Positions 34,201-37,200 of a stretch of 64,000 nt of DNA are shown in pieces. The stretch lies in NCBI RefSeq assembly GCF_054482525.1, contig NZ_CM137006.1; one strand, given 5' to 3'. Within the stretch, counting starts at the first letter, position 1. Every line of letters begins with the position of its first letter. Made by a program: the position numbers.

Positions 34201-37200
34201 GACAACCGGGGGAATATCACCATTAATCTGGATGACCACATACGGTCCGTTCAGGGTAAAGAACGCTATGAAGATGAGATGTTCATCATTAAATACTTTA
34301 AGAAGGGATCTGCACACATCACTTTCAAAAGGCTGGAGCTGATTGACAGAATTAACGATATAATAGCCAGGCACTTTCCTTCTGTGCTCTCAGCCTGACC
34401 CCGAGTTTGATTCCCTTTCGATATCAAAAGGGACTGCGGGTACAAAAGAGGGTACATCTTTCACCAAACCAAACAAAATAAACTAATATCAACATGATAG
34501 AAGCAATCTTCGATTCCGAGTCCGGCACCAAATTCATATAAACGGACCTCCACGGAGGTCCGTTTTTCGTTTCAGGACGCCACAATTTAAGCGTTCTGCC
34601 TAAAAATCATTTCTACCGAACTCAACCAAATTCTCCCCACATCACCAGCATTTTGCGGGTATATCCCAATTCGGGGAAATGTGTTCCTGAGCTATCGCAC
34701 TGACTGACGTGAAATGTCGTGCGGCCCCGTGATGCTGTTGAACGTCAAATGACGTCATCAGGAGCGTAACGCATCCATAAAGCACAACATCGGTCTGAAC
34801 GCCGACTGATAAGATTTTCTGAATGAGAACAAAGAGAAATGTATCGGTCCACTTGCTCATGCAAAGACTAACAATCCATTAAAATAGTAAGCGCTCCGGG
34901 CAATTTTCCATGGATTATTTTCTGCACATTTTTCTTTGGCAAAGATGATGAATTTTGATGGTAAGGAATATTACTTCTGGTTCTCAGTAAAATCCTTTCG
35001 TAATACTATGTAATCAAGAAGTTTATGGCTGGTAAAAATAACGTCTTGCATTCACCAACAATATGTAAATAAAACCATCTATAGATGGTAAAAATAGGTT
35101 GTGGCAATTATCATTGCATCATTCCCTTTTCGAATGAGTTTCTATTATGCAACAACCTGTAGTTCGCGTTGGCGAATGGCTTGTTACTCCGTCCATAAAC
35201 CAAATTAGCCGCAATGGGCGTCAACTTACCCTTGAGCCGAGATTAATCGATCTTCTGGTTTTCTTTGCTCAACACAGTGGCGAAGTACTTAGCAGGGATG
35301 AACTTATCGATAATGTCTGGAAGAGAAGTATTGTCACCAATCACGTTGTGACGCAGAGTATCTCAGAACTACGTAAGTCATTAAAAGATAATGATGAAGA
35401 TAGTCCTGTCTATATCGCTACTGTACCAAAGCGCGGCTATAAATTAATGGTGCCGGTTATCTGGTACAGCGAAGAAGAGGGAGAGGAAATAATGCTATCT
35501 TCGCCTCCCCCTATACCAGAGGCGGTTCCTGACACAGATTCTCCCTCCCACAGTCTTAACATTCAAAACACCGCAACACCACCTGAACAATCCCCTGTTA
35601 AAAGCAAACGATTCACTACCTTTTGGGTATGGTTTTTTTTCCTGTTGTCGTTAGGTATCTGTGTAGCACTGGTAGCGTTTTCAAGTCTTGATACACGTCT
35701 TCCGATGAGCAAATCGCGTATTTTGCTCAATCCACGCGATATTGACATTAATATGGTAAATAAAAGTTGTAACAGCTGGAGTTCCCCGTATCAGCTCTCT
35801 TACGCGATAGGCGTGGGTGATTTGGTGGCGACATCACTTAACACCTTCTCCACCTTTATGGTGCATGACAAAATCAACTACAACATTGATGAACCGAGCA
35901 GTTCCGGTAAAACATTATCTATTGCGTTTGTTAATCAGCGCCAATACCGTGCTCAACAATGCTTTATGTCGGTAAAATTGGTAGACAATGCAGATGGTTC
36001 AACCATGCTGGATAAACGTTATGTCATTACTAACGGTAATCAGCTGGCGATTCAAAATGATTTACTGGAGAGTTTATCAAAAGCGTTAAACCAACCGTGG
36101 CCACAACGAATGCAGGAGATGCTCCAGCAAATTTTGCCTCATCGTGGTGCGTTATTAACTAATTTTTATCAGGCACATGATTATTTACTGCATGGCGATG
36201 ATAAATCATTGAACCGTGCCAGTGAATTATTAGGTGAGATTGTTCAATCATCCCCAGAATTTACCTACGCGAGAGCAGAAAAAGCATTAGTTGATATCGT
36301 GCGCCATTCTCAACATCCTTTAGATGAAAAACAATTAGCAGCACTGAATACAGAAATAGATAACATTGTTACACTGCCGGAATTGAATAACCTGTCCATT
36401 ATATATCAAATAAAAGCGGTCAGTGCTCTGGTAAAAGGTAAAACAGATGAGTCTTACCAGGCGATAAATACTGGCATTGATCTTGAAATGTCCTGGCTAA
36501 ATTATGTGTTGCTTGGCAAGGTTTATGAAATGAAGGGGATGAACCGGGAAGCAGCTGATGCATATCTCACCGCCTTTAATTTACGCCCAGGGGCAAACAC
36601 CCTTTACTGGATTGAAAATGGTATATTCCAGACTTCTGTTCCTTATGTTGTACCTTATCTCGACAAATTTCTCGCTTCAGAATAAGTAACTCCCGGGTTG
36701 ATTTATGCTCGGCAATATTTGTTGTTGAGTTTTTGTATGTTTCTGTTGGTATAATATGTTGCGGCAATTTATTTGCCGCATAATTTTTATTACATAAATT
36801 TAACCAGAAAATGTCCCGCAATCCATTGTAAACATTGAATGTTTATCTTTTCATGATATCAACTTGCGATCCTGATGTGTTAATAAAAAACCTCAAGTTC
36901 TCACTTACAGAAACTTTTGTGTTATTTCACCTAATCTTTAGGATTAATCCTTTTTTCGTGAGTATTCTTAGCGCCAGTTTGGTCTGGTCAGGAAATAGTT
37001 ATACATCATGACCCGGACTCCAAATTCAAAAATGAAATTAGGAGAAGAGCATGAGTTCTGCCAAGAAGATCGGGCTATTTGCCTGTACCGGTGTTGTTGC
37101 CGGTAATATGATGGGGAGCGGTATTGCATTATTACCTGCGAACCTAGCAAGTATCGGTGGTATTGCTATCTGGGGTTGGATTATCTCTATTATTGGTGCA

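Follow-up and report, generated by a model that had tools for sequence, protein, structure and literature searches.

What a short copy of a tRNA end is doing in the chromosome, where the DNA that lies to its left comes to an end, and at which bases strands were exchanged, are the questions raised by one site in the stretch of DNA analysed here (the window: 64,000 nucleotides of contig NZ_CM137006.1, RefSeq assembly GCF_054482525.1). The copy, ttcgattccgagtccggcacca, is a 22-mer that lies at 34509-34530 on the plus strand and occurs only once in the 64-kb window. It is in all likelihood the distal attachment site (attR) of a pathogenicity island of ~85-93 kb in pheU; with equally high confidence we take this island to possess a tyrosine integrase of the P4/CP4 type, to contain hlyCABD, cnf1 and fec, and to resemble PAI II of strain J96. 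Junctions of this type are well known, and the very repeat has been published before. The features on which the analysis is based are, from left to right:

1-763, minus strand: 5' part of hlyA, which runs off the start of the window; island cargo (HM24 hlyA, L005 46075-49149)
775-1287, minus strand: hlyC; island cargo (counterpart: HM24 L005 49161-49673)
10146-17691, minus strand: fecIRABCDE, ferric citrate uptake operon; island cargo (open reading frames; fecE to fecI in the annotation of HM24)
21106-21874, no strand assigned: IS1-like element in place of ~9 kb of island DNA (90.7% identical to IS1F)
21874-34398, plus strand: conserved distal island module, whose last gene encodes DUF4942 (33553-34398); 99.8% identical to HM24 and ST80
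34399-34508, plus strand: island-side attachment arm (P arm), defined by ends shared among islands; arm-type binding putative
34509-34530, plus strand: attR core, 22-nt copy of the tRNA-Phe 3' end minus one G of GGG (alignment; published attR)
34531-34663, plus strand: apparent fossil of an integrase-proximal arm, including a tRNA terminator hairpin (identity to the HM24 attL)
34694-34726, plus strand: apparent fossil of integrase codons 1-11, IALTDVKCRAA against MALTDAKIRAA (tblastn, translation)
34728-34887, plus strand: apparent fossil of the integrase C-terminus, approximately codons 359-421, with a frameshift and an internal stop (tblastn, translations)
35147-40612, plus strand: cadC, cadB and cadA; chromosomal backbone (open reading frames; annotation of K-12)

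Aligned with pheU of K-12, the 22-mer corresponds to the final 23 nt of the tRNA gene, its run GGG being shortened to GG, and thus covers the T loop, the 3' strand of the T stem, the 3' acceptor strand and ACCA. The left edge of the identity block is the first base of the T loop, TTCGATT, which is the edge expected of the T-loop sublocation. When the window is searched with TTCGATTCCGAGTCCGGCACCA, allowing up to three mismatches, this copy is the sole match, so that a second copy of the repeat, the sign of tandem islands, is absent from the window; none of 100 shuffles was matched, and chance similarity was rejected as the source of the 22-mer. ARAGORN finds no tRNA gene in the 64 kb, alignment upstream of 34509 reveals no resemblance to the 5' part of tRNA-Phe, and an Rfam scan of 33400-35300 at a permissive threshold returned no partial tRNA or sRNA, only one meaningless weak match. 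The preliminary description of this DNA had read the repeat as the end of tRNA-Phe minus one G, with no remainder of the tRNA upstream, and in both points it agrees with our results.

Both edges of the junction are visible from genome comparison. For the empty pheU sites of K-12 and the near-isogenic SCU-102, homology to the window sets in only at 34509. Most of 5426 complete E. coli genomes likewise begin to match at exactly this position, which in them lies within an intact tRNA-Phe gene that follows dicD. At the other edge, strain Es_ST80 (ST80) carries the same island between yqgA-pheV and kpsF, and its homology to the window ends exactly at 34530. Strain ESBLEC_HM24 (HM24), in which the island is located at pheU, shows no mismatch to the window over 31500-34583 and 94 mismatches in 6070 bp beyond 34583; its divergence steps at the junction from 0.2% on the island side to 1.5% on the chromosomal side. 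According to the comparisons with HM24 and SCU-102, the joint between island-like and backbone-like DNA can be placed only within 34526-34583, and once the pheV-inserted copy is taken into account, only the end of the tRNA gene is left for it. Hence the presence/absence polymorphism has its breakpoints at the repeat (K-12, SCU-102 and the pheV copy), and the distal direct repeat is a partial copy of a tRNA 3' end, as is characteristic of tRNA-associated islands. The P arm together with the repeat is found at pheU in 1256 and at pheV in 1388 of the 5426 genomes, so that at either locus roughly one E. coli genome in four has the upstream arm. The claim that 34509-34530 is the distal att site of a tRNA-integrated island is supported by the empty sites and by the pheV copy alike, and the copy in Es_ST80 stops at 34530, where the island had been predicted to end.

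Copies of the island with 99.8-100% identity are present in HM24, ST80 and some 40 further genomes. Its best match is HM24, the best match of the backbone is SCU-102, and no complete-genome record matches both. Because the island is almost identical to those of HM24 and ST80, and the backbone is that of the island-less SCU-102, 1.5% away from HM24, this pattern suggests that the island has recently been transferred to another chromosomal background.

The window begins inside hlyA, within an island of the HM24 type, so positions 1-34508 are island DNA. Positions 1-1614 are 100% identical to HM24 L005 48387-50000, positions 4000-21106 are 99.97% identical to HM24 L003 1-17107, and the whole of 1-34508 is collinear with the HM24 island except for one IS1-linked deletion of 9 kb; the earlier assignment of everything from 1 to ~34508 to the island holds with this exception. 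With hlyC, partial hlyA, fec and IS elements, the window contains virulence or fitness genes as well as traces of horizontal transfer. At the far end of the HM24 island, ~93 kb upstream, dicD is followed by an intact tRNA-Phe gene and a tyrosine integrase of 421 aa, and sfa/foc fimbriae, cnf1, hlyCABD and the fec operon lie between the island ends. The integrase (WP_001218780.1) contains the domains Arm-DNA-bind_3, Phage_int_M and Phage_integrase, the set of the P4/CP4 type, and an identical protein adjoins pheV in ST80. An intact tRNA-Phe gene with an integrase had been expected at the other end, and this arrangement is indeed found in relatives (pheU of HM24, pheV of ST80), the proximal end of the present copy being located outside the window.

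The DNA replaced by the IS1-like element corresponds to HM24 L003 17107-26102, which is without counterpart in the window and retained in HM24 and ST80. The lost 9 kb contains an H-NS-like gene, a ProQ/FinO-like pseudogene, a YagK/YfjJ gene and an excisionase-like HTH gene; the latter (78 aa; weak match to TIGR01764 below the curated cut-off) is the sole excisionase-like gene seen in the relatives. The distal module comprises, according to the annotations of HM24 and ST80, genes for a GTPase, DUF932, an antirestriction protein, a RadC-like protein, YeeU/CbtA, DUF5983, DUF957 and DUF4942. All 28 mismatches to HM24 in the 12.7 kb of the distal module (21874-34530) are found within 30500-31500, the antirestriction/RadC-like region, which from this clustering looks like a recombination patch.

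On the island side of the repeat, only the last 110-145 bp are common to many otherwise different islands, and the 110 bp of the P arm start after the stop codon of the DUF4942 gene. This arm is kept across two variants, at pheU as well as at pheV. It contains two GGGTACA 7-mers (34438-34444 and 34450-34456) with a period of 12 nt; the consensus GGGTAYA has 11 sites in the 64-kb window, three of them within 226 bp at the junction. The integrase-proximal arm of HM24 has two GGGTATA heptamers with the same 12-nt spacing, of which the arm downstream of the repeat keeps one (34657). Analogous paired heptamers are located beside the same 22-mer in Xenorhabdus, Sodalis, Rouxiella, Brenneria and Limnobaculum. 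The paired heptamers are likely to be arm-type sites, putatively bound by the N-terminal domain of the integrase.

On the chromosomal side, a hairpin at 34540-34565 is followed by a T-run to 34568, and its GC-rich core starts at 34543, 12 nt after the repeat. With a stem of 11 bp, a loop of 4 nt, a following TTTTT and a folding energy of -18.4 kcal/mol (z = -5.8 against shuffles), it has the properties of a rho-independent terminator, as which it is predicted, and as which the preliminary description had placed it 12 bp past the repeat. That description had also called it the retained native terminator. This is correct insofar as the hairpin follows pheU in K-12 and SCU-102, but the island family carries a copy that is 92% identical: window 34509-34663 has 92.3% identity to the HM24 attL (tRNA 3' end plus 133 nt), and the same sequence lies 3' of pheU in K-12 and SCU-102. 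In Es_ST80, the intact pheV gene is followed by a terminator and leader of the pheU type, while the native pheV terminator stands behind the distal repeat; the pheU-type terminator therefore belongs to the attachment arm of the island family. In the attL at pheV this arm stands in place of the pheV terminator, and at pheU in place of the resident copy, which it has displaced. Because the integrase end of the island carries a copy of the terminator arm, the flanking repeat of pheU-located relatives extends to ~155 bp at 92%.

The remnants of an integrase gene follow. A DNA match links 34687-34709 to the start of the HM24 integrase gene, the two C-terminal pieces reach a joint E-value of 2e-10 in tblastn, and the equivalent stretch of K-12 is annotated by PGAP as a frameshifted partial tyrosine recombinase. 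As judged from these similarities, 34531-34887 appears to be the fossil of an older P4-type element, consisting of terminator, leader and an internally deleted integrase. Within the fossil arm, the stretch 34584-34700 is hypervariable: it differs from HM24 at 14 positions in ~117 nt, is identical to SCU-102, and also varies among K-12, the attL of HM24 and the attR of HM24. In strain 200112 (L042, 3948-4950), the pheV island has shrunk to the tRNA gene, the terminator arm, an integrase stub of 516 nt, the P arm, the GG repeat and yghD; by analogy, this collapse would be a present-day example of the process behind the fossil at pheU.

Beyond the fossil, cadC (35147-36685), cadB (37051-38385) and cadA (end at 40612) stand in the same order as 3' of pheU in K-12. 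Reading frames and the K-12 annotation thus concur with the notion that the downstream cadCBA genes are the neighbours of pheU; the view that all DNA past the repeat is core applies to the cadCBA backbone, but not to the first ~360 bp, the apparent fossil element, which is present in K-12 too. Further downstream, between yjdJ/ghoST and dcuS, ~16 kb (45212-60246) are absent from K-12. This insert encodes two autotransporters of 1309 and 1284 aa, one of them annotated in relatives as an S6-family peptidase, an AraC-type regulator, a small sigma-70/ECF-like open reading frame and a chaperone-usher fimbrial operon. Coverage of this insert reaches at least 80% in 570 of the 5426 E. coli genomes; SCU-102 and PCN033 carry it with 100% identity.

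From these elements, the following course of integration can be proposed. The attP of the circular island would consist of the P arm (34399-34508, with its paired candidate arm-type repeats), the tRNA-like core and a P' arm formed by terminator, leader and integrase gene. Recombination with the 3' end of pheU would yield, at the far end, an intact tRNA joined to the terminator and integrase gene of the island itself, and, at the distal end, the P arm and the 22-nt core, fused to the DNA that resided downstream. The resident 34531-34887 would go back to an older, related element that became fixed in E. coli and of which a decayed attL arm and an integrase with an internal deletion are left. Since the resident DNA is the arm of this older element, the hairpin at 34540-34565 would terminate nothing here; at an empty site it would be the terminator of pheU. 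With an island-borne core, excision would restore an intact tRNA.

Less straightforward is the interpretation of the missing G. SCU-102 shares the backbone of the window, including a non-K-12 insert that is 100% identical over 44900-61100, and its empty pheU reads GGG; as there are no mismatches over 34509-45476, the G is the sole difference in 10.9 kb. An attR with GG also exists at pheV, where the same island with an identical integrase lies next to the native pheV terminator, and GG is furthermore found beside another version of the island arm, diverged by ~10%, and in a tandem junction whose arm is of an unrelated type. In a collection of E. coli junctions gathered regardless of the state of the G – a small set whose members are phylogenetically non-independent – repeats that start at the T loop have GG in 11 of 13 cases and repeats that start at the anticodon loop in none of three. 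These three fragments, all GGG, were left by other element types, one of them SPI-7/ICE-like. Both T-loop-start attRs with GGG are located at pheU, and their GGG could stem from conversion via the long flanking homology. The G that the preliminary description found wanting is thus indeed absent, but its absence is no incidental lesion: it is a family-wide feature of this type of attR. Because SCU-102 differs by the G alone and GG is also found at pheV, we favour an island-borne core over the native end: on balance, the GG core was probably brought along by the island and is not the displaced end of the native tRNA gene, with strand exchange in the last ~7 nt (GGCACCA), a stretch that does not differ between the two partners. 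Two observations do not fit easily, namely that the repeat starts at the first base of the T loop and that two attRs at pheU have GGG. The complete model, in which the core travels with the island, exchange takes place in GGCACCA, the left 15 nt are an island-borne mimic of the tRNA and act as a core binding site, and the pheU terminator of E. coli is a captured ancient island arm, we rate at slightly better than even.

The main competitor of an island-borne core is the classical mechanism with exchange in the T loop (TTCGATT), according to which the right-hand 15 nt are the displaced native end of pheU and one G was lost later, be it by slippage in the GGG run or by survival of excision-defective copies, as could be the case. 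We consider it a serious but clearly less probable explanation. The identity block has its left edge precisely at the T loop, integrases of this group that target phe loci have been placed in the T-loop sublocation class, defined by a crossover in the loop (10.1101/2020.11.02.365908), and imperfect repeats have been argued to stabilise islands (PMC11537424); moreover, other genera have GG in fragments of the anticodon type and in a single full-length tRNA-Phe gene. Yet the mechanism requires the same deletion of one nucleotide repeatedly, at pheU and at pheV, and in the window without any other change over 10.9 kb compared with the empty-site strain SCU-102. In addition, the 23-nt block shows no mutation besides the G in 13 junctions, and every displaced native fragment left at this E. 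coli locus by an anticodon-type element has GGG.

Homologous recombination of a large donor fragment could have produced the junction with no integrase involved, if the right crossover fell beside the repeat by chance; this we regard as improbable. The joint between donor and backbone, placeable only within 34526-34583, would be compatible with it, and E. coli islands are mosaic, as exemplified by the divergent patch at 30.5-31.5 kb. The crossover would, however, have been needed within 58 nt despite kilobases of flank with 98.5% identity, and the very same boundary recurs to the base at pheV, where homology of the flank is absent. That the 22-mer is the remnant of a pheU gene destroyed by an insertion or deletion, with no intact copy and no att site, is suggested solely by the absence of a tRNA gene from the window. 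Relatives with this junction all keep an intact pheU or pheV with an integrase at the other end, and the upstream arm is kept in about a quarter of the genomes at each of two loci; a destroyed tRNA gene was accordingly rejected, and we ascribe next to no probability to it.

A junction resembling attP (P arm, core, P' arm and integrase gene), circular or tandem, was found in none of the 5426 E. coli genomes; the search returned only attL sites and the nearly deleted pheV island of strain 200112. A scan of species-representative genomes for the GG form yielded 22 matches, including the anticodon-type fragments of other genera; as the GGG form matches every tRNA-Phe gene, the scan was run for GG only, and being biased in this way it cannot give GG/GGG frequencies. 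Some of the sites encountered deserve mention in their own right. Pantoea sp. IMH (L020, 1527-1548) has a full-length tRNA-Phe gene with GG, a changed T stem (CCCTGG) and its own terminator thereafter, which is either a decayed copy, an excision scar or an assembly error. Two short contigs of metagenome-assembled genomes ('uncultured Clostridia bacterium' and 'Proteobacteria bacterium'; L025 and L036) combine the E. coli island arm with the flank of pheV or pheU and are probably misbinned E. coli DNA. In Marinobacter sp. C7 (L027, 5178-5199) the exact 22-mer stands in a GC-rich context, without tRNA-like or island-arm flanks; a copy by chance would be unexpected. E. coli EC6563 and JKHS004 (L039 and L040, ~3001) carry at pheU the attR type TTC-ATTCCGAGTCCGGGCACCA, in which a G of the T loop is absent and GGG is kept; the distal module in front of it includes an additional ParDE toxin-antitoxin pair.

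Among known systems, the she island (SHI-1) at pheV of Shigella flexneri is said to be excised in an Int- and Rox-dependent manner between the 22-bp end of pheV and an imperfect distal repeat. We take it to share with the present island the tRNA target, the kind of imperfect 22-nt repeat, a P4-type integrase and an AlpA-like excision factor. Its cargo differs, and the only excisionase-like gene of the relatives of our island lies in the 9 kb deleted from the window copy. The integrase pseudogene between pheU and cadC of K-12, presumably the P4-like integrase remnant called yjdQ, is the same remnant as window 34728-34887; beyond this pseudogene, the terminator, the leader and the 11 N-terminal codons also appear to be fossil, homologous to the attL arm of the live island. 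PAI II (PAI V) of the uropathogenic strain J96, at pheR/pheU and with hly, cnf1 and prs, has the same tRNA locus, and its hlyCABD-cnf1 cargo recurs in the relatives of the window. Its flanking repeats are reportedly imperfect and ~135 bp long, which would fit the 155-bp repeat of 92% identity measured here. In contrast to J96, the relatives carry sfa/foc and fec instead of a documented prs cluster, and the window copy has its IS1-linked deletion of 9 kb. A review cites PAI II of J96 as able to use several isoacceptor tDNAs (PMC7545054).

The closest published counterpart of the repeat is the attR 'TTCGATTCCGAGTCCGG-CACCA' ('23-bp imperfect'), listed for 16 strains with GI-pheV (PMC11537424, Table 1; PLoS Genet 2024), to which the 22-mer of the window is identical; the other attR types in that study depart from the tRNA only 5' of the last 11-15 nt, which also speaks for an island-borne core. 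GI-pheV islands share with ours the attR sequence, the P4-type integrase beside the tRNA gene and the distal yee/CP4-44-like module, and the very island of the window occurs at pheV in Es_ST80. The difference lies in the target: here, attR is located at pheU and abuts the pheU fossil arm and cadC, not the pheV terminator and kps/yghD.

As the biology is textbook knowledge and the exact repeat has been published, the value of the finding is mainly one of annotation: 34530 is the last base of the island, and the 360 bp that follow would be a fossil element rather than true core. What research value there is beyond this lies in the position of strand exchange. The junction bounds a virulence island, with alpha-hemolysin and ferric citrate uptake in the window and CNF1 and S/F1C fimbriae in its relatives, and this island moves between E. 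coli backgrounds and between two tRNA-Phe genes. If the G-less core is island-borne, excision would always restore a working tRNA, and the imperfect repeat would be a design feature of the element and not a sign of its immobilisation. An exchange in GGCACCA, if true, would furthermore depart from the exchange in the T loop that is assumed by the usual sublocation scheme.
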